Below are positions 3,592 through 31,147 of a stretch of DNA of 39,800 nucleotides, piece by piece. A program made the translations under genes and the position numbers. A model generated the notes under the pieces. That model was given only the letters and a program-made list of their open reading frames with translations. It was not told where the DNA came from and did not search any database. The stretch is from IMG/VR virus record IMGVR_UViG_3300028430_001052. The stretch is one strand, 5' to 3'. The stretch is from a virus. Numbering within the stretch: the first letter of the stretch is position 1; every line of letters starts with the position of its first letter.

Positions 3592-3829
3592 ATGCCTCCA
3601 AACGACGCTTTTTCTCGTCTATGACTAAACTTTTAATGATATGTTTTTTCTCTTCTGGACAAAGACCATCCATTTCTTTGCTAAAATTTGATCTTCCGTA
3701 ATCTATTTTTTCCTCGTCTGTAAAACAAAGCTTACAAACATCAGGACGCTTACTGTCGGATAAAAAGGCTCGGTAATTTTTTGTAAAATCGCACCTTATG
3801 CACTTGATACCCTGTTTACTTTGCTTCAT
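3560..3829 (-). CDS. Small zinc-ribbon-like protein
   Basis: Cys pairs C-x2-C ... C-x2-C (IKCIRCDF...VCKLCF). Overlaps neighbours on both sides. Confidence 0.4.
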   Translation of the reverse strand: MKQSKQGIKCIRCDFTKNYRAFLSDSKRPDVCKLCFTDEEKIDYGRSNFSKEMDGLCPEEKKHIIKSLVIDEKKRRLEAYAKKEKRSSV

Positions 3830-4727
3830 ATGTTAAGAGCTCCCCGTAGCCGTCCCACATTTCTTGATAGAAGAGATAGGTTGTCCCTTCGATTCCGAAC
3901 ATTCGGTTTTTAGCTATGCGTACTTTTACTTTGTTTGGATTTGCTTGATCATCTGTTCTGGCACATCTATGCAGAACAATGACGTTGTCCGCATACTGTT
4001 TGATTGCTGAGGAGCCTTTAAGCGAATGCAAACCTACTTCTTCATTGTTATTTGCAGATTGGCGTGGATGGCAGATCAGCAAGAAATGCATAGAAAGAGC
4101 GAAAGCAAGCTCATGTAAGCGCTTCACGGTCTCATCTATTGCTTCGTGGAGCTTTTCTTTTTTGGCGTTAACGAGGTAATCTAAGTGATCCAACATCACA
4201 ATTTCGATCCCTAGCTGTTTTGCCTTTACTAGTTGTTGAGCTAGAGAATTAATGTCGGTTCCAATTGTATTTGGATTGATATAGACCTTATAGCGGGAGG
4301 CCCACTCGTCAAACTGTTCGTTTTCATGGACGCCGAAGTTACAAACCTTCATTGGACGGCGAAGGATGATAGAAGCTAGCTTGCGCATAGTCGTTTCAGG
4401 CTTCATTTCCCAAGAGTTGATCCATACAGGAATGCCTTGCATCGCACAATTGACAACTAGCTGCGTACAAAAGGTTGTCTTCCCAGCTCCGGTGTCAGCA
4501 GTAACTACAGTGACTTCGCCTTTACGGAGCCCTTGTAGATAACGATCTAGACACTTCCAGCCAGTGGAGTAACCTTTGTTAATCTCTTTTCTGTAATCTC
4601 GAGGCAAAGAAGCGAGAGGCGTAAGACAATCTTCATGGGGAGCCGTTGGCAGCCCAAACTGAAGGAAGTTCTCTAATCCTTTTTCTTTATCTTGTTGAAT
4701 TCCAGAATATGTTCCTTGCCCTTCCAT
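3816..4727 (-). CDS. DnaB-C-terminal-type (RecA-fold) replicative helicase
   Basis: Walker A is VTADTGAGKTTF and Walker B is IVMLDHLDYL. The sequence LKGSSAIKQYADNVIVLHR is typical of the DnaB_C family. No DnaB N-terminal domain is present. Confidence 0.7.
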   Translation of the reverse strand: MEGQGTYSGIQQDKEKGLENFLQFGLPTAPHEDCLTPLASLPRDYRKEINKGYSTGWKCLDRYLQGLRKGEVTVVTADTGAGKTTFCTQLVVNCAMQGIPVWINSWEMKPETTMRKLASIILRRPMKVCNFGVHENEQFDEWASRYKVYINPNTIGTDINSLAQQLVKAKQLGIEIVMLDHLDYLVNAKKEKLHEAIDETVKRLHELAFALSMHFLLICHPRQSANNNEEVGLHSLKGSSAIKQYADNVIVLHRCARTDDQANPNKVKVRIAKNRMFGIEGTTYLFYQEMWDGYGELLTYEAK

Positions 4728-6893: not shown

Positions 6894-7061
6894 ATGCACG
6901 ATGTGACTATAGGTGGTGTCAAGTATTTTTCTGTTTTAATCGCCTTAATAGCCATGTGGATGATATTTATTTTCGCATTTTCAGGGGATTTTAGCCTAAG
7001 CAAAGAAATCCTATGGCTTCAAGGGCTACAAAGAGACCATATGTTTCCAATATTTTCCTAA
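6894..7061 (+). CDS. Small membrane protein (55 aa), not in the ORF track
   Basis: The ATG lies 2 nt after the erf stop. Hydrophobic segment YFSVLIALIAMWMIFIFAF. Confidence 0.3.
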   Translation: MHDVTIGGVKYFSVLIALIAMWMIFIFAFSGDFSLSKEILWLQGLQRDHMFPIFS

Positions 7062-7090
7062 AGAAATAAGTTATGACGAGGAGGAATAGA

Positions 7091-7267
7091 ATGAAAAAAG
7101 TGTTTTTAGCTTGCACATCGGTCCTATTATCAGCATGCACAATCAGCTTTCAAAATATCAGCACTCACGGAACAGCGACAGACTTGGTAGATGAAAATCA
7201 AGCAACATCTCCTACCGTTTCACCTAATATCAACGTTCCAACAACGGGAAGCCTATTCAAAAAATAG
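7091..7267 (+). CDS. Small lipoprotein (58 aa)
   Basis: GAGGAGG lies upstream of ATG 7091. MKKVFLACTSVLLSAC contains the lipobox L-S-A-C. Confidence 0.55.
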   Translation: MKKVFLACTSVLLSACTISFQNISTHGTATDLVDENQATSPTVSPNINVPTTGSLFKK

Positions 7268-7277
7268 CGGAAAAACT

Positions 7278-7592
7278 CTATGCAGATAATCTTTTTAAAA
7301 TATATGAATTAATACTTAATCTTTCTTGCGCTGCATGAGCCACTACTTTGACATACAAATCTGGAGGCATTCTAAGATTAAATTTTCCTGAATGAGGTTT
7401 TTCGGGTTCTTTGCCTCTTTCTTTACACCAATCAATGTAATCATCAATTGAATCTTTAAAGGCTTGTTCAATTTCATCGACTGTTGTTCCCTGAAACGTA
7501 ATCACGGCCTTAAGCGCAGCGACTTCTCCGTGAAAGATCCGTGCTTCGTCGTCATAAACAACGCATCCTGTGTATCCTTTATATTTTAACAT
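7278..7592 (-). CDS. hicB: HicB-family antitoxin
   Basis: Contains YKGYTG.V.YDDEARIFHGEV......ITFQG.TV.E...AF..SIDDY..WC.E.G.EP, followed by a C-terminal RHH-like segment. Confidence 0.75.
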   Translation of the reverse strand: MLKYKGYTGCVVYDDEARIFHGEVAALKAVITFQGTTVDEIEQAFKDSIDDYIDWCKERGKEPEKPHSGKFNLRMPPDLYVKVVAHAAQERLSINSYILKRLSA

Positions 7593-7843
7593 GGCTTAAC
7601 TCCTGCATTTTCTAAAAATTTTCGTACAGAAACTACAGCTCCTTTATCGGTTTCTTTCTGTGGATGAGGTCTATGGAATACAGCTTCTTCATCATTAAGC
7701 AATATTCTTACTCTCGAGCCTCTTCCTTCTTCAATTTTCGCTCCAAGAGCAACAAATAAAGATTCTACATCTTTCCAATTGATATTCGTTCTTACTGGCG
7801 TACAAAAGATAGCTTCTAGTATGCGTTGATGTTTTCTATTCAT
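7586..7843 (-). CDS. hicA: HicA-family mRNA-interferase toxin
   Basis: Contains ..W.DVESLF.ALGA...EGRGSRVRI.L......FHRPHP. Overlaps hicB by 7 nt. Confidence 0.75.
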   Translation of the reverse strand: MNRKHQRILEAIFCTPVRTNINWKDVESLFVALGAKIEEGRGSRVRILLNDEEAVFHRPHPQKETDKGAVVSVRKFLENAGVKPC

Positions 7844-7919
7844 ATTTTCATGATATCAAAAAATGGGGCCAAAGTCAACGGTGCAGAAATTTTTTAAAGA
7901 CAAACGCTCTAAAAGTGTC

Positions 7920-8066
7920 CTATTTCTTTTTAGTTTTAGCGCTCTGGGGTTTACCTGCCTGATTTAACGCAGCAGCAACAGCTTGCTTCTGCGGGTATCC
8001 CGCTTCTTTCATTTCTTTAATATTCTTAGAGATTATTTTCTTGCTTTTACCTTTGGATAATGGCAT
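7920..8066 (-). CDS. Small lysine-rich protein (48 aa), not in the ORF track
   Basis: MPLSKGKSKKIISKNIKEMKEAGYPQKQAVAAALNQAGKPQSAKTKKK. The KxxSKNIKE...PQKQAVA.AL pattern recurs in small phage and bacterial proteins, from memory. Confidence 0.45.
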   Translation of the reverse strand: MPLSKGKSKKIISKNIKEMKEAGYPQKQAVAAALNQAGKPQSAKTKKK

Positions 8067-8077
8067 ATGTCTTCCTT

Positions 8078-9544
8078 ATGAAAACTTTAATTTTTTTACT
8101 GCTTCTTACTTCCGCTCCATGTATTGCTGAGAGCGTCTTTATGGGATTAATTATAAAGCATAATGATTCCACTATTCCAGCGTTTCTGGAAAAAATTAGC
8201 GCACTTGACTACGACAAGAAAAAAATTAGCGTACACATCGATGTGCTAAATGATAAAGCGCTTCCTAAATTGTTGAAATGGTGTGACGAAAATCATCGAT
8301 TATATCAATCAATGAGCTGGAAGAAAAGCTGCGAAACAACAGCTAAGACGAAAGAAGCTTATTTAAGAGCTTCTAAAGACTTTGATTTAGTATTCATTGT
8401 TCCTTCAGATGTGTTTTTAAACCGCTTTACTTTAACTCACCTTGCTAATAAACAACTTCCAGTAGTAGCTCCGTTATTGCGTCCTCTACCAAAAGCAGGA
8501 GACCCTTACCGCAATTTTTACCTTACCGCAACACAAGAGGGCTATTATGCATCTAATTCTGAAGAAACAGAAATTGCGGACAGAAGAAACATCGGAACTT
8601 TTAAAGCCGACTGCGTCCATGGAGCTCACCTAATTAGGACTAAATACTTGGATAAACTCTCATTTTTAGGTAAAGCGCCGTGGAGCTTCATTGATTTTAG
8701 TAACACGGCTCGTAAAAATAACGTTGATCAGTACATTTGTAATGAAAGAGAGTTTGGGTTTTTACTACATAACGACATAACAGAAGATGTAGCGTTGCCT
8801 TTTCTTTCTGAAAACATCACAAGGGAGAAAGTTCAAAGTCTTGTAAAAACTGAAAACGATCCAGAACTAGTTAAATACTTGGATTCATTTCCGATTGAAG
8901 TATACTCTCTATACCCAGTGGAAAATGATCTTTATTGGGTAGATGAGAAATGGGATTGGGTGAAAGGACACTACATCAAAAAAGGATTGCGCTGGGAACC
9001 ACATATCGAAGCTGTTTTTAAGCAATATGTAAACCCTGGAGATACTGTTATCGATATTGGCGGTCACATAGGCACCCACTCCATTAACCTCTCTCGGTTA
9101 GTGGGAGCAACAGGAACTGTCCATGTGTTTGAGCCACAATCTAAGCTATACACAGAACTCAGCGTAAACACGGCGATTAACTCATGCAACAATGTTAAAG
9201 CATATAGATTTGCTCTAGGCCAAGAGGAAAAAACGGTTGAAATTGTACACCCCTGCTCAACTAACGAAGGTATGGCATGTATAGGACAAGGTGGCGAGAA
9301 AGTCACGATGAAGCGGCTAGATGATTTTGGCATAAATAACGTTAGCCTAATCAAAATCGATATTGAAGGGCATGAGATTGAAGCGATAAAAGGTGGACTT
9401 GAAACGATTAAAAAAAGCAAACCTGTGATAATAGTTGAAGTTTTTCGTGGTCCAGAATGTGATGAACGCCTGATGTATCTTAGATCTCTCGGATATCAAG
9501 TTACTCATTTGGAAGACAATGACTACCTATGCCTTCCTCTTTAA
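8078..9544 (+). CDS. Signal-peptide protein fusing an N-terminal GT-A glycosyltransferase-like domain to a C-terminal FkbM-family methyltransferase
   Basis: N-terminus is MKTLIFLLLLTSAPCIA/ES. The GT-A-like region shows LPVVAPLL, NFY...GYY and ICNEREFGF, reminiscent of the Anp1/COLGALT N-terminal domain. The FkbM motifs are VIDIGGHIGTHS, VHVFEPQ, FALGQEEKTVEI and LIKIDIEGHEIEAIKGG. The ORF track starts at 8060, but ATG 8078 gives the signal peptide. Confidence 0.65.
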   Translation: MKTLIFLLLLTSAPCIAESVFMGLIIKHNDSTIPAFLEKISALDYDKKKISVHIDVLNDKALPKLLKWCDENHRLYQSMSWKKSCETTAKTKEAYLRASKDFDLVFIVPSDVFLNRFTLTHLANKQLPVVAPLLRPLPKAGDPYRNFYLTATQEGYYASNSEETEIADRRNIGTFKADCVHGAHLIRTKYLDKLSFLGKAPWSFIDFSNTARKNNVDQYICNEREFGFLLHNDITEDVALPFLSENITREKVQSLVKTENDPELVKYLDSFPIEVYSLYPVENDLYWVDEKWDWVKGHYIKKGLRWEPHIEAVFKQYVNPGDTVIDIGGHIGTHSINLSRLVGATGTVHVFEPQSKLYTELSVNTAINSCNNVKAYRFALGQEEKTVEIVHPCSTNEGMACIGQGGEKVTMKRLDDFGINNVSLIKIDIEGHEIEAIKGGLETIKKSKPVIIVEVFRGPECDERLMYLRSLGYQVTHLEDNDYLCLPL

Positions 9545-9561
9545 GATTAGATGGAAACTTA

Positions 9562-9586
9562 AGAGGCTCCCGAATTGAGAGCCTCT
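9562..9586. terminator. Hairpin between convergent genes
   Basis: AGAGGCTC-loop-GAGCCTCT lies between the stop at 9544 (+) and the stop at 9595 (-). Confidence 0.5.
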
Positions 9587-9594
9587 ATCTTACT

Positions 9595-10578
9595 CTAACT
9601 AATCAATTCGAAGCTCACGTTTGAATAAATCCCAAAGCTCTCTCCTTCCGCTCCAACAGTCTTGGTGCTCCCGCTAATCACAGCCACAATAGATGCTGTT
9701 TGTCCGGCGGTCATGCTGCATATTTGACTGATACACTTTGAGAACATGTTGTTGCTGTCTCTGCAGACTCCTGGGTTAAAAACATATCTATACGTCACCC
9801 AACCGGCGATTAGTCGCACTTCACCGGCTGTATGACCAGCGGCCAAGTTATTGAAGGTAACACAAGCTGTAACCAAATATTTTCCATCGATAGGAACCGT
9901 AAACAGGCCTGTAGAGGGATTATAATTTGAGTTTTGATCAAACAGCTCTACATCAAAAATTATTGGGTTAATAAAAGTCCCATCTCCGGTTGCATTAGTC
10001 GTGCTTGCGTTAAGATAAGCTGTTACACATGGATTTAGAGGTTGAGTAACTTCCCCTGTCGGCATAACCGCTATAAGCGTTTCATCTCCCCCTCCTGACT
10101 CAGGAGTTACACTATCATTTGCCCCTGTTCTTAATTTCCATGGATCATTTGTTGTTCCATTATCGGGGCCTACACAATAAGAGCGAGAGGTTCCAATTGC
10201 TGTCCTATAAAACGGGCTTCCAGAAGAGGTCCCTCCTGTTGAAACGTGAGCGATAGCAAATGAGCTGGAGCTAGTGTTGTCTGTATTACTTACAGTCAGT
10301 GTTCGTGCCACTCCAGCAGTAGAAGTTGTGAATGTATAGTCATTGGAAAGGCTTGTGCCCCACGTAGGATTCCCCGCACCATTGGAGCTCAAAATGCTAT
10401 TGTTGGCATTTGCAGTCAAGTCTATCGTGACTGTAGATCCAGAGCCTGATGTCGAAATAGAAGTCCCCCCTAAAACATTCAGATTGTTTGAAGTTGGCAC
10501 TGCAGTTCCTGTATCCTCTGTAAACTGAAGTGGCACACTAGGCGATAATTGGGCACTTGTTGAACCTGACTGACTCAT
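9595..10578 (-). CDS. Tail fibre / receptor-binding protein with a C-terminal C1q/TNF-like jelly-roll head
   Basis: Last gene of the virion operon. The N-terminus is Ser/Thr/Gly-rich. The C-terminus IIFDVELFDQNSNYNPSTGLFTVPIDGKYLVTACVTF...MTAGQTASIVAV...SNVSFELIS parallels the gC1q signature. Confidence 0.6.
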   Translation of the reverse strand: MSQSGSTSAQLSPSVPLQFTEDTGTAVPTSNNLNVLGGTSISTSGSGSTVTIDLTANANNSILSSNGAGNPTWGTSLSNDYTFTTSTAGVARTLTVSNTDNTSSSSFAIAHVSTGGTSSGSPFYRTAIGTSRSYCVGPDNGTTNDPWKLRTGANDSVTPESGGGDETLIAVMPTGEVTQPLNPCVTAYLNASTTNATGDGTFINPIIFDVELFDQNSNYNPSTGLFTVPIDGKYLVTACVTFNNLAAGHTAGEVRLIAGWVTYRYVFNPGVCRDSNNMFSKCISQICSMTAGQTASIVAVISGSTKTVGAEGESFGIYSNVSFELIS

Positions 10579-10579
10579 T

Positions 10580-10921
10580 TTATACCCCCGAAGAATAAAT
10601 TGCTTCTATGTAGACGCTCCCTGAGGTGGGAGCTCCAGAAGAATATTTGATGTAGAATTGTGTTCCAATCTGCATTACAAACCAATCGCTATCTTGCACA
10701 TTTAATGCATTCGTAGCCAAGTCGTATAAAGTGTAACTTCCTGCAGGAACGAAGAAATTGTCATTAGTGCCATCAGCGCTAATGAGCATGTCGGCATCTG
10801 TATTGTTTGTGATTTTAAATACTCTCCAATTGCGATCAAGAGCACTTCCTAATGTTGTGTATGAGTTTGTGATCGTACCAAAAGCTTTGCTACGAAGCGT
10901 GTCGAAACGAACTATTGCCAT
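10580..10921 (-). CDS. Small virion-associated beta-rich protein
   Basis: Called from position between the internal proteins and the fibre, plus composition. Confidence 0.35.
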   Translation of the reverse strand: MAIVRFDTLRSKAFGTITNSYTTLGSALDRNWRVFKITNNTDADMLISADGTNDNFFVPAGSYTLYDLATNALNVQDSDWFVMQIGTQFYIKYSSGAPTSGSVYIEAIYSSGV

Positions 10922-10967
10922 GAATCCTCCCTAAGATATCAATCCAAAAGTTTATTTGTTGTTTGCT

Positions 10968-12731
10968 TTAATCAGCGTCATATATCTCTAATTCGCCCAT
11001 CATGTCGTCCATGAAATCGTCCACACTCCCCCATTCTTTGCCTATCTGTCTCTCAAGTTGGACAAAATCCTTCTTAAGCAAATTAAAAGCGCCTTCTGCG
11101 GTGTGCTTCAAAGTGAGTTTATATATTTGTCTTGTAGCATCTCTCGTAAGCAGTTTTCCTTGTATATGCTTTGCAAGAGGCTTTACTAGCGAGAGTGCCG
11201 CGCCTTTAATATTATGTGGAAAGTAAATGAAAGGAGCTATTTGCCCTAAAGATCTGACTTCGTTGGCTACAGATGATCCACGTAGGTCTAAGAATTTAGT
11301 CATCTTTTCTTGCGCTTCTTTGCCATACTTAGCTATTTCAATGATCTCTTCAACGGCCTTCTCTCCTAAGTTCCTTCTTAGGTAATTTCCTTGCTTAGAA
11401 TGAAGAATTCTGTCGAGTTTCTTTGAGCTGTATCCGTCTTGAAAAGCTTTCTCTAATATGCTCTCTGACTGAACAAGCTTAGACTTCTCATGATAGATTT
11501 TATTTGCTGCTTTAAATGCATTAGACACATCTGCATTACCGTGCTTAGCCATTGCATCGACTAGCTCATCTTTAAGAAACTCGTAAGTCTTTCTTATCTG
11601 TTCCTCTTTCCCAGAAAACTCAGGCTTTTTATAAATCGATTTCATGTCTGAGTTATAATTCATATGTTGATTGATCAATTGCTCTGAAGAAGGATTTGAT
11701 ACTTTCAAAATATCTCTCTCTTCTTCCAATAATTTGATCGTGCTCTTTTGTGCATCGCTTGGAGATGGAGCTAATGCTTTTATACGAGCAATTTCTCTAT
11801 CAATATTTTCTACAATCGTATCTGTTTTAATGAGATTAGGCTTTGCTTGGGCCATGCGCCTTGTTTCTGCATAAGCATGTTCGCCTAGGGCATCTAAGTT
11901 TATACCTTTATCACGAAGCCTACGAATTGGGATTTGGTTCTCAACAATTCGGTTGAGCGCCTCTTTCGTGGAGAGCTTTAATTCTTCTTTCAAATTAGAC
12001 TCGGCATTTTTAAACAAACGCCCTTTAAGTAAAGGCTCCCTTTCTTTGACCATGAATTCCTTAAAAGGAAGTGCATACTTTTGAGCTGTTTTTTCTAAAT
12101 CTCTTGCCGATTTAGGCACTACTTTGGCTGTTTTTTCAAAAGCTGCCGGAGACAAACTAACTACATCCCCAATAATTTCAGCTTTTGTCTTTCCAAGTCC
12201 GCCCTTCTCTAACGCATGAGTCGTTCCAGCACCAATAGCTCCAGAAGCTAACTTTTTCGCAATGCCTCCAGGAGTCAAAGAGGCAATCTCAGCAAATTGT
12301 TTTGTTCCTTTGCCTAAACCAGTTCTCGGCTCAAGAGAAATGCCTGTCAATTCTTCAAAACCTTTCTCAGCTAAATCTTGAGTAGGAATAAAGTGGGCTG
12401 CTTCAAACACACTTCGCACATAATCTTCTCTATTGAATGGCTTCCCTGTTTTACGAAAAGCTTCTTCAATATCGTCAAGGTCTGATAACCCTTCACCAAT
12501 CATTCCTAGCTTCAGGACGTCCGCTGGCCAAGTGAAAGCTTTCAGCGCTCCACGACCAGCTTGAGTAAAGACATCACCTGCCGTTTCCCAAAATCCAGGT
12601 TTCTTCTCATTCTTCTCCTGCGCATAAGACTCCATATCAATGAAGCTATCTTCAAGATTTTCATCCTTTTCTTTTTCATAAGAAGCCAGATCGATTCCAA
12701 AGTCATCATCTTCCATCGTTTTTTCTACCAT
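10968..12731 (-). CDS. Internal virion / ejection protein-like (T7 gp16 position)
   Basis: Large helical, charged protein in the gp14-gp15-gp16 position of a T7-like order. Confidence 0.4.
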   Translation of the reverse strand: MVEKTMEDDDFGIDLASYEKEKDENLEDSFIDMESYAQEKNEKKPGFWETAGDVFTQAGRGALKAFTWPADVLKLGMIGEGLSDLDDIEEAFRKTGKPFNREDYVRSVFEAAHFIPTQDLAEKGFEELTGISLEPRTGLGKGTKQFAEIASLTPGGIAKKLASGAIGAGTTHALEKGGLGKTKAEIIGDVVSLSPAAFEKTAKVVPKSARDLEKTAQKYALPFKEFMVKEREPLLKGRLFKNAESNLKEELKLSTKEALNRIVENQIPIRRLRDKGINLDALGEHAYAETRRMAQAKPNLIKTDTIVENIDREIARIKALAPSPSDAQKSTIKLLEEERDILKVSNPSSEQLINQHMNYNSDMKSIYKKPEFSGKEEQIRKTYEFLKDELVDAMAKHGNADVSNAFKAANKIYHEKSKLVQSESILEKAFQDGYSSKKLDRILHSKQGNYLRRNLGEKAVEEIIEIAKYGKEAQEKMTKFLDLRGSSVANEVRSLGQIAPFIYFPHNIKGAALSLVKPLAKHIQGKLLTRDATRQIYKLTLKHTAEGAFNLLKKDFVQLERQIGKEWGSVDDFMDDMMGELEIYDAD

Positions 12732-30469: not shown

Positions 30470-30505
30470 TGTTAAATGCGTTTATTGTGTTTATTGAATG
30501 CGTTC
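30470..30505. promoter_or_regulatory. Two AATGCGTT boxes 22 bp apart at the parA 3' end, upstream of the parG-like gene
   Basis: TGCG at 30477 and 30499. The 5' leader CTCCTACGT..TGCGTTT resembles the one upstream of parA. Confidence 0.4.
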
Positions 30506-31147
30506 TAAACACGTTGAAAATATACATTCATACAAAGCTTTCATCTCTTGAGTAGCCTTCTTGTCTTGTACCTTTAATTCGACAACCCCCAGGCCATCAG
30601 CTGCAGCATTGCTAAACGCCTTTCTTTGCCCAATACACACCGGAGCGCACTCAATATCGGGACACTCTTTTAACACTTCGATTGCAGCTTCGTTATCTTC
30701 TCCTCTAGAATCCGCTTGATTGATTACTGCTAAACAGATCAAATTCGGATTTACCGCTTTTATCTCTGCAATCATCTTTTTTAGTGGCCCAATTGTCCAA
30801 ATGTCCAACGATCTCGGCTTGAAAGGAATCACAAAAACATCTGCTATCACTAATGCAGATCTTTGGCTTGTAGTGTCTCTTCCCCCAACATCGATAATTA
30901 CATAATCATAATCGGCGCCCATCTTCTGCAACTGAGCATTTACCGCCTTTCCAGACAACTCTACCGTTACCCAAGAAGTATCGACTCCTTCATCTTCTCT
31001 TTGTTGCGCCCAATCACTTGCTGATTTCTGCTCATCTGCATCAACCAACAAAACTTTACTTCCAGATTCTGCTCTCATTACAGCTAAATTGGTGGCTATT
31101 GTTGTCTTACCACTGCCACCTTTGATTCCTCCGACTACAACGATCAT
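30491..31147 (-). CDS. parA: Short ParA/ParF-type partition ATPase
   Basis: Deviant Walker A GGIKGGSGKTT, then LLVDADEQ and VIIDVGGRDT. 218 aa with no N-terminal HTH. Confidence 0.8.
   Translation of the reverse strand: MIVVVGGIKGGSGKTTIATNLAVMRAESGSKVLLVDADEQKSASDWAQQREDEGVDTSWVTVELSGKAVNAQLQKMGADYDYVIIDVGGRDTTSQRSALVIADVFVIPFKPRSLDIWTIGPLKKMIAEIKAVNPNLICLAVINQADSRGEDNEAAIEVLKECPDIECAPVCIGQRKAFSNAAADGLGVVELKVQDKKATQEMKALYECIFSTCLERIQ

Follow-up and report, generated by a model that had tools for sequence, protein, structure and literature searches.

The window analysed here is the 39,800-nucleotide viral DNA IMGVR_UViG_3300028430_001052 of IMG/VR, taken over its full length. Between its Erf gene and its tail-fibre genes it carries an open reading frame (ORF) for a protein of 488 amino acids (aa) in which a predicted Sec-type leader, a domain of the GT-A glycosyltransferase (GT) fold and an FkbM-family methyltransferase module follow one another (Table 1). 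Gene callers in public data use the same 8078 start, and the identical protein has been called in public assemblies; an in-frame ATG lies upstream at 8060, and its use would add MAYVFL.

The C-terminal module is predicted to be a methyltransferase of the FkbM family dependent on S-adenosylmethionine (SAM), with scores of 65.4 bits against PF05050 (curated cut-off 22.7) and 87.5 bits against TIGR01444 (curated cut-off 37.7). The motifs of its core read VIDIGGHIG, FEPQ and KIDIEGHE. D326, G328 and G332 in the first motif and E352 in the second are invariant in the family of 44 fusion proteins to which the window protein belongs (the fusion family), while D428 is kept in 41/44 members, E430 in 42/44 and G431 in at least 41/44. 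The phage copy retains every SAM-motif residue, and the SAM motifs, D428 and E430 included, are at least 90% conserved in 53 homologs of the module. The C-terminal FkbM methyltransferase announced in the preliminary description of this gene is therefore borne out, and it is intact.

By fold and homology the N-terminal domain belongs to the lineage of the GT1 domain of human COLGALT1 (GLT25D1) and the AC domain of LH3 (PLOD3). A single-sequence phmmer search of the PDB returned COLGALT1 at 6.5e-11 and LH3 residues 274-494 at 8e-6, and a profile of the 44-member family returned the COLGALT1 GT1 region at 4.3e-33, LH3 residues 273-500 at 2.1e-19 and mimivirus R699 at 6e-10. The same three proteins hold the top Foldseek ranks (COLGALT1 4e-19, LH3 8e-17, R699 7e-14), with generic bacterial GT-A enzymes (TarP, SpsA, RmlT) at ~1e-8, about ten orders of magnitude below the top. 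The AlphaFold2 model of the fusion protein has a predicted local distance difference test score (pLDDT) of 94 and a predicted template modelling score (pTM) of 0.90, and because of the latter value the two domains are expected to be packed together in a fixed arrangement. In the alignment with COLGALT1, LPVVAPLL corresponds to TVVAPML, NFY..T..GYY to NFWCGMTSQGYY and ICNEREFGF to VCNKEEYGF, in agreement with the COLGALT-type blocks recognised earlier, and the DxD position does read PSD as had been stated (P109-S110-D111). The label "eukaryote-like" agrees with the closest solved relatives, collagen glycosylation proteins of metazoa and giant viruses, but the domain is not eukaryotic in particular. 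A profile search with the GT domain gave 2182 matches at E < 1e-3 among 1.84 billion representatives, many of them multidomain proteins in which the domain is combined with GT2, GT25 (in the COLGALT order), PLOD-GT, GT4, TPR or other methyltransferase domains. Metagenomic multidomain proteins of up to 1882 aa carry the GT domain (P0248, P0255 and others), in P0248 within a GT25-linked architecture. At E up to 1 the window protein gave no match to the Anp1/Mnn9 family (PF03452, GT62), which is matched by chlamydial paralogs and by long-form fusions, e.g. P0019 at 56 bits.

The leader, MKTLIFLLLLTSAPCIA followed by ES, opens with a basic n-region; aa 3-17 form an uncharged stretch of 15 residues, positions -3 and -1 are occupied by small residues, and its succession of MK, TLIFLLLLTSAP and CIA before ES corresponds in a heuristic analysis to the n-, h- and c-regions of a Sec signal peptide. 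No hydrophobic segment beyond the leader is present in the fusion protein, and the leader segment has a low pLDDT (64-71) in the AlphaFold2 model. Leaders are found in ~36 of the 44 members of the fusion family, the ~8 leaderless members looking like truncated gene calls, and the pattern C-x-[AG] followed by [ED] at the cleavage site is conserved in the close subfamily. By these heuristics and this family-wide conservation, the N-terminal leader noted earlier was upheld. A lipoprotein reading of the conserved leader cysteine is less likely: the residue at -1 is P in the window protein and variable in its relatives, and cleavage by signal peptidase I after C-x-[AG] fits better.

Table 1. Features of the fusion gene and its neighbours in the window
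Feature	Position	Strand	Evidence
Coding sequence, predicted exported GT-A-like/FkbM fusion protein, 488 aa	8078..9544 (alternative in-frame start 8060)	+	ORF list; identical public gene calls
Predicted Sec-type signal peptide, aa 1-17 (MKTLIFLLLLTSAPCIA, predicted cleavage between CIA and ES)	8078..8128	+	Heuristic n/h/c analysis
GT-A-fold domain, aa ~19-240, homologous to COLGALT1 GT1 and LH3 AC; degenerate DxD = P109-S110-D111	8132..8797	+	phmmer, profile, AlphaFold2, Foldseek
Predicted FkbM methyltransferase module, aa ~255-488: conserved pre-methyltransferase segment and FkbM core (aa 323-475)	8840..9541	+	PF05050, TIGR01444
Hairpin separating the fusion gene from the convergent tail-fibre gene; candidate terminator for both directions	9562..9586	.	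RNA fold of 9540-9600
hicB-hicA toxin-antitoxin pair (hicB 7278-7592, hicA 7586-7843); co-cargo in the same variable slot	7278..7843	-	PHROGs 6e-36, 2e-27; Pfam HicB, HicA_toxin
48-aa basic ORF, divergent from the fusion gene	7920..8066	-	phrog_2423, 2.6e-15
Last tail-fibre gene, convergent with the fusion gene	9595..10578	-	PHROGs family of unknown function 2.7e-10; weak tail-fibre match 7e-4; Pfam C1q

COLGALT1 GT1 is described as binding a structural Ca2+ and UDP-galactose (UDP-Gal; UDP, uridine diphosphate) with no direct catalytic role, and the LH3 AC domain is called inactive (PMC12003778). The GT1 ligands listed in that paper were mapped on an alignment of 14 stand-alone chlamydial GTs, the 44 fusion-family members and the window protein (Table 2). 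The stand-alone paralogs have D-C-D at the DxD position. The canonical motif is absent from the fusion family, which reads [S/E]-S-[D/E] and keeps the last acidic residue alone, and of the structural Ca2+/UDP-Gal site (W135, R139, R147, D166, D168, D265) the window protein keeps the D168 equivalent and a lysine at R147. A GT-A fold was thus rightly predicted in the preliminary description, and the activity implied by the word glycosyltransferase was not confirmed: the nearest solved domains are non-catalytic, and most UDP-Gal ligands are missing from the window protein.

Table 2. Residues aligned with the ligands of COLGALT1 GT1
COLGALT1 residue	Stand-alone chlamydial GTs	Fusion family	Window protein
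R61	R 10, K 4	mostly K	K
W135	W in 13	lost (deleted or replaced)	deleted
R139	R in 12	deleted in short form	deleted
R147	R in 13	K	K
D166	D in 13	S, E or P	P
A167	C in 13	S, invariant	S
D168 (metal ligand)	D in 13	D/E in 40	D111
D265	E in 13	D/E in 43	S203

A tentative reading of these data, to which we give somewhat less than an even chance and which overlaps with the explanation preferred below, is that the GT-A domain catalyses nothing itself and serves for binding or as an accessory module, as LH3 AC and COLGALT1 GT1 do, the whole protein being an exported methyltransferase with a substrate-recognition domain. The inactivity of the best solved homologs as structural domains (PMC12003778) is in its favour, as is the divergence of the fusion family from the stand-alone paralogs, which keep W135, R139 and R147 along with D-C-D where the family lacks W135 and has K for R; the window copy also has no acidic residue aligned to D265. 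Against it, S110, N146, N222 and E225 are invariant in the fusion family and R135, R145, R169 and E223 nearly so, which points to a selected ligand site, and D111 is D/E in 40/44 members. Because these other polar residues are invariant or nearly so, the donor pocket appears to have been remodelled, not abandoned. Activity may also survive the loss of DxD: bacterial GT6 enzymes without the motif are described as active and metal-independent (PMC3516806, PMC3961637). Like the window domain, they are homologs of mammalian GT-A enzymes with the DxD replaced, but they form a different GT family, are cytoplasmic and have no methyltransferase partner. We regard sugar transfer by the N-terminal domain as having roughly even odds.

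COLGALT1 GT1 and LH3 AC share with the window domain the GT-A fold, the blocks (V)VAP(L/M)L, NF..........GYY and CN.(E)E(F/Y)GF and the metal-ligand aspartate (D168), and the proteins to which they belong carry signal peptides and enter the secretory pathway. In the human proteins these non-catalytic domains precede GT25 or lysyl-hydroxylase domains, whereas the partner in the window protein is an FkbM module, and the PLOD architecture, with AC between GT and lysyl hydroxylase, is not that of the window protein. COLGALT1 and LH3 modify collagen, whereas the window protein has no evident collagen-like target and lacks equivalents of the W135/R139 segment, D166 and D265. Mimivirus R699, a collagen galactosylhydroxylysyl glucosyltransferase, and the PLOD-like GTs of giant viruses have the amoebal niche in common with the likely host lineage of the phage. 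R699 consists of a catalytic domain and an adjacent accessory domain (PMC12279948). The profile match falls at its residues 311-457 and not on the N-terminal catalytic domain, with an identity of 16-17%, and these residues probably represent the accessory half.

Stand-alone relatives of the methyltransferase module, 31-46% identical and matching from ~aa 255 (loci L016-L070), are found in Acidobacteria (Vicinamibacterales), Pseudomonadales, Myxococcota, Burkholderiales, Verrucomicrobia and other groups. A strongly hydrophobic segment lies just upstream and in frame in 47 of 53 such relatives, a lipobox is present in 23 and a twin-arginine-like motif in 10, as against 2, 0 and 2, respectively, among 16 more distant FkbM controls. 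The relatives appear to make up a systematically exported FkbM subfamily that includes free-living bacteria. In the preliminary description it was pointed out that both activities need cofactors, a nucleotide sugar and SAM, that are not available in a bacterial periplasm; because the stand-alone relatives carry leaders or lipoboxes, this cofactor paradox extends to the whole exported subfamily. The leader had also been said to imply either a type-II-like anchor or export into a eukaryotic compartment, which proved too narrow a choice, since exported relatives of the module (the 47 of 53 just mentioned, with signal peptides or lipoboxes) occur in free-living phyla; for the same reason the leader alone is no evidence for delivery into a eukaryotic cell. 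It is an ancestral trait of both the GT-A and the methyltransferase modules. In the literature we found no description of exported FkbM proteins or of this fusion family.

Among GTDB representatives, full-length fusions occur in Parachlamydiaceae, Rhabdochlamydiaceae and metagenome-assembled genomes named "Chlamydiae bacterium", with one labelled Verrucomicrobia and some unlabelled. Signal-peptide-bearing stand-alone COLGALT1-GT1-like GT paralogs with an intact D-C-D stand in tandem arrays in chlamydiae (L064 2690-5540; L066 5971-7705). Other chlamydial variants with leaders are P0049, in which the order is reversed so that the methyltransferase precedes the GT, and P0054, in which a GT4 domain is joined to the GT; in locus L014 (5059-6696) a classical GT2 with a signal peptide is fused to the same methyltransferase module. 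Leaders are thus present in every related chlamydial architecture examined. Since either module may come first and the GT partner is of two unrelated types, there is good evidence that the GT and methyltransferase modules are functionally coupled and would act on the same substrate. Such combinations are not confined to chlamydiae: in BFVD, giant-virus and phage proteins align over both the GT-A and the FkbM parts, so that GT-A and FkbM fusions already exist in giant viruses and other phages, and phage glycan-modifying morons are well known. What is unusual here is the COLGALT-GT1/PLOD-AC lineage, the secretion signals across the chlamydial GT/methyltransferase toolkit, the carriage by a possible tailed chlamydial phage-plasmid and the unexplained cofactor supply.

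An exact 141-bp terminal direct repeat (1-141 and 39660-39800) marks the window as a complete genome of ~39,659 bp, either circular or terminally redundant. It encodes virion proteins (a P22-type portal, an N4-gp56-type major capsid protein, tail and tail-fibre proteins), with portal and ejection proteins that are P22-like, an Erf/exonuclease pair and a DnaB-like helicase (3816-4727) for recombination and replication, and, for maintenance, ParA (30491-31147), an XerD-like recombinase (35011-35916) and two toxin-antitoxin pairs. With tailed-phage virion genes beside ParA, helicase and recombinase genes, it looks like a phage-plasmid. The same functions, ParA, a DnaB-like helicase and an XerD-like recombinase, are found in the core of the chlamydial plasmid (PMC7846284). 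The genome contains no tRNA gene and gave no att clue either. At E < 1e-10 there are 564 protein clusters (made at 90% identity) related to the capsid protein, with 70-95% identity, on contigs of ~42 kb or less in almost all cases among the matches listed, and the capsid gene family is present on at least 115 IMG/VR contigs; it defines a widespread episomal phage family of ~40 kb. A search for integrated copies gave two capsid relatives on contigs of 164 kb and 74 kb, with no identifiable host genes in their 10-kb flanks. An insertion sequence (IS) fragment (DDE_Tnp_1_3, 470-751) lies beside a Gp49/HTH toxin-antitoxin-like pair (803-1511), and a 43-kb variant of the same phage (L246 1-2700) has an extra reverse-transcriptase (RVT_1) gene at this site.

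Within this phage family the fusion gene is accessory cargo. A relative with a 92% identical capsid (L245) keeps both the tail module and the Erf/exonuclease module, and has just two small secreted or lipoprotein ORFs between them; hicAB, the 48-aa ORF and the fusion gene are all missing. When IMG/VR was scanned with the fusion-family profile, there were matches to the methyltransferase domain only, at no more than 37% identity, and the GT domain matched on no contig of this phage family. The exact fusion protein is indexed in 47 sample blocks, with the same phage neighbours in the places displayed and on no contig larger than 44 kb, and the next-closest protein among 5.8 billion is 56% identical. 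Lake metagenomes, e.g. JGI 3300008106 and 3300032116, are among the sources of the phage. Its absence in L245, the IMG/VR scan and the 47 sample blocks with phage neighbours on contigs of at most 44 kb show the fusion gene to be a true moron that entered this phage lineage a single time. The preliminary description had called it a moron, and its variable slot and its orientation opposite to both flanks, together with its absence from L245, agree with that name. In one sample the gene is split into products of 147 aa and 261 aa (P0115 and P0116) on one 18-kb contig, owing either to a frameshift in this variant or to faulty assembly. A DNA search with positions 7000-11000 gave no match among deposited phages, and tblastn of the fusion protein against deposited phages and plasmids matched the methyltransferase domain only, at up to 40% identity, and never the GT domain. 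No defence-system model of PADLOC was matched by the fusion protein.

The fusion gene is the sole + strand gene between the hicB, hicA and 48-aa ORFs on one side and the last tail-fibre gene on the other, all of them on the - strand. It had been introduced as a lone + strand gene between hicAB and the end of the virion operon with its own terminator hairpin; the position is correct, with the 48-aa ORF as an addition, and a hairpin with an 8-bp G+C-rich stem does lie downstream (minimum free energy of the whole 61-nt stretch -15 kcal/mol, z -2.2), but it has no clear U-tract and was missed by a consensus terminator scan. The promoter of the fusion gene must be located within or beside the 48-aa ORF. 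The G+C content is 0.366 in 8001-9000 versus ~0.41 genome-wide, in line with the status of the gene as cargo. The convergent tail-fibre protein has a Ser/Thr-rich N-terminal half and a C1q-like C-terminal domain (aa 193-241, 25.4 bits versus a Pfam cut-off of 23.7). Small lipoprotein or secreted ORFs are found in the slot between Erf and the tail fibres both in the window (7073-7267, + strand, with a leader and an LSAC lipobox) and in L245 (17087-17697), and envelope-directed cargo may be typical of this slot. An antisense ORF of 118 aa (9064-9420, - strand) gives tblastn matches wherever the methyltransferase is conserved and was rejected as a gene, being a shadow of the methyltransferase coding frame.

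To our knowledge, next to nothing has been published on tailed phages of Chlamydiae, and the chlamydiaphages known so far are Microviridae. Comparison of the portal, DnaB-like helicase, recombinase and ParA with PLSDB was uninformative as to the host (Chromobacterium, mixed taxa at 25-30%, Deinococcus and cyanobacteria at ~50%). Tetranucleotide usage was compared with the homologous gene masked and with 48 GC-matched non-chlamydial genome or viral loci as controls. The correlation with 21 chlamydial chromosomal loci had a median r of 0.74 (range 0.57-0.83), and that with the controls a median of 0.32 and a maximum of 0.76, reached by a Verrucomicrobiae locus. Because of this usage and the distribution of the fusion family, an environmental chlamydia, or at least a member of the Planctomycetes-Verrucomicrobia-Chlamydiae superphylum, is the likely host.

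The explanation that we prefer, with a probability of roughly 0.55, is that the gene encodes an exported enzyme of lysogenic conversion whose target is a glycoconjugate outside the cytoplasm, which it would methylate and perhaps also glycosylate. The product would be made as a preprotein, exported by Sec and probably cleaved by signal peptidase I after Ala17, and the mature protein would consist of two rigidly packed domains, the GT-A fold with its remodelled pocket and the intact FkbM methyltransferase. It may act in the periplasm, at the cell surface or, in the case of an intracellular chlamydia, within the vacuole of the eukaryotic host. At that site a sugar-containing acceptor would be O-methylated by the FkbM domain, and the GT-A domain may add that sugar or merely bind and position a nucleotide-sugar or glycan. 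The bacterial surface or host interface would be altered as a consequence of lysogeny, a reading suggested because the gene lies beside the tail-fibre gene on the opposite strand. A precedent for the cofactor supply comes from C. trachomatis, in which host UDP-glucose is reportedly imported into the inclusion lumen (PMC4829429) and used there by secreted enzymes. These secreted glycogen enzymes are likewise nucleotide-sugar-dependent and act outside the chlamydial cytoplasm, but they belong to other families and involve no methylation, and they are said to use type III secretion, not Sec leaders. Several points weigh against this explanation. We know of no route for SAM or nucleotide sugars into a bacterial periplasm; the host assignment is compositional, not direct; the signal peptide call rests on heuristics; and no sigma-70-like promoter for the + strand gene reached the threshold of our scan. 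As for the GT-A domain, its nearest solved homologs are non-catalytic, the W135/R139 segment and the first DxD aspartate are missing, and at the D265 position the window protein, alone in the fusion family, is not acidic (S203, versus D/E in 43/43 relatives).

A host-directed effector is a rather unlikely alternative. After Sec export the protein would leave the bacterium by type II secretion or in vesicles and act on glycans or glycoproteins of the host, be it in the vacuole lumen, in the secretory pathway or in the cytosol. UDP-sugars and SAM can be had in these places, so that the cofactor paradox would be resolved. The chromosomal homologs are lone genes in varied contexts, with TopA-SWIB, CesT, Mla genes, an F-box-like protein and a HEAT/Arm+BTB protein as neighbours. 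It is the two closest that adjoin the last two kinds, a 1050-aa HEAT/Arm+BTB protein (L254 7497-10649) and an F-box-like protein (L255 3077-3652). Eukaryote-like genes of the F-box and BTB types are expanded in, and typical of, amoeba-associated chlamydiae. The likely chlamydial host, the tandem expansion of signal-peptide GT paralogs and the identity of the closest solved relatives, collagen-modifying proteins of the endoplasmic reticulum lumen and R699 from a virus of the same amoebal niche (PMC12279948), also fit an effector. On the other hand, the protein shows no signal for a secretion system apart from its Sec leader, the gene neighbours are weak evidence, and the donor pocket has become degenerate. 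Moreover, Acidobacteria, Pseudomonadales and Myxococcota that are free-living, and so without a eukaryotic host, have exported lipoproteins related to the methyltransferase module. The phage-borne glycan-modifying effector suggested in the preliminary description is thus a candidate reading, with the likely host and the F-box/BTB neighbours in its support.

In a more far-reaching version, which we regard as unlikely and slightly more so than the effector as such, the protein is a secreted enzyme of the collagen-glycosylation lineage with a methyltransferase, carried on a tailed phage or phage-plasmid of environmental chlamydiae, and is part of an unrecognised extracytoplasmic toolkit (leader-bearing GT-A, GT-B and FkbM modules in many combinations) that would draw its nucleotide sugars and SAM from the host, in the vacuole lumen or the host secretory pathway, and remodel the glycans where symbiont and host meet.

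Classical seroconversion at the cytoplasmic face, in which the N-terminus would be an uncleaved anchor and both domains would modify a lipid-linked surface glycan from the cytoplasm, has a small chance of being correct. The cofactors would be available there, some distant family members have hydrophobic segments of 18-22 residues, and the P22-like portal and ejection proteins go with a slot like that downstream of the tail-fibre gene in which P22-like phages carry O-antigen conversion genes. In the gtrABC-type seroconversion modules of P22, accessory genes beside the tail-spike or tail-fibre gene alter the surface glycans of the lysogen. A Gtr module is, however, a trio of the flippase GtrA, GtrB and a GT-C enzyme; no flippase or GT-C partner is encoded near the fusion gene, whose neighbours are hicAB, the 48-aa ORF and tail-fibre genes, and its product is predicted to be a single soluble exported protein with methylation as its chemistry. 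The uncharged hydrophobic stretch of the window protein is just 15 residues long, with a basic N-terminus (N-in) and a -3/-1 cleavage motif, and the chromosomal homologs never lie in polysaccharide clusters. Close homologs in O-antigen clusters, which the preliminary description had named, in combination with a cytoplasmic topology, as evidence against its own proposal, were accordingly not seen.

The characterised FkbM-family sugar O-methyltransferases, e.g. V. cholerae RfbT and rhizobial NoeI, are cytoplasmic, whereas the window module comes from a subfamily with signal peptides or lipoboxes; homologs of the fusion protein give weak RfbT-family matches. That the gene is a decaying, non-functional passenger is very improbable: the phage copy has substitutions of its own at otherwise conserved positions (R116, H184, S203) and one sample has the split version, but only 5 of the positions at least 85% conserved in the fusion family differ in it, the 488-aa ORF is intact and identical in the 47 sample blocks, the SAM-motif residues are all kept and the fold prediction is confident.

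If the preferred explanation of an exported conversion enzyme is right and the protein is active outside the cytoplasm, it would carry out glycan chemistry that needs nucleotide sugars and SAM where bacteria are not thought to have them. The exported FkbM subfamily of the free-living phyla poses a puzzle of its own, the source of SAM outside the cytoplasm being unexplained. In chlamydiae, where glycogen synthesis in the inclusion lumen is so far the single known example, a whole family of secreted glycan-modifying enzymes would be added, and phages would move such functions between strains. The homology to COLGALT1 GT1 and PLOD AC provides bacterial and phage relatives for two enigmatic non-catalytic domains of human collagen glycosylation, and the stand-alone relatives with a complete UDP-sugar site may help to explain the original role of this domain.

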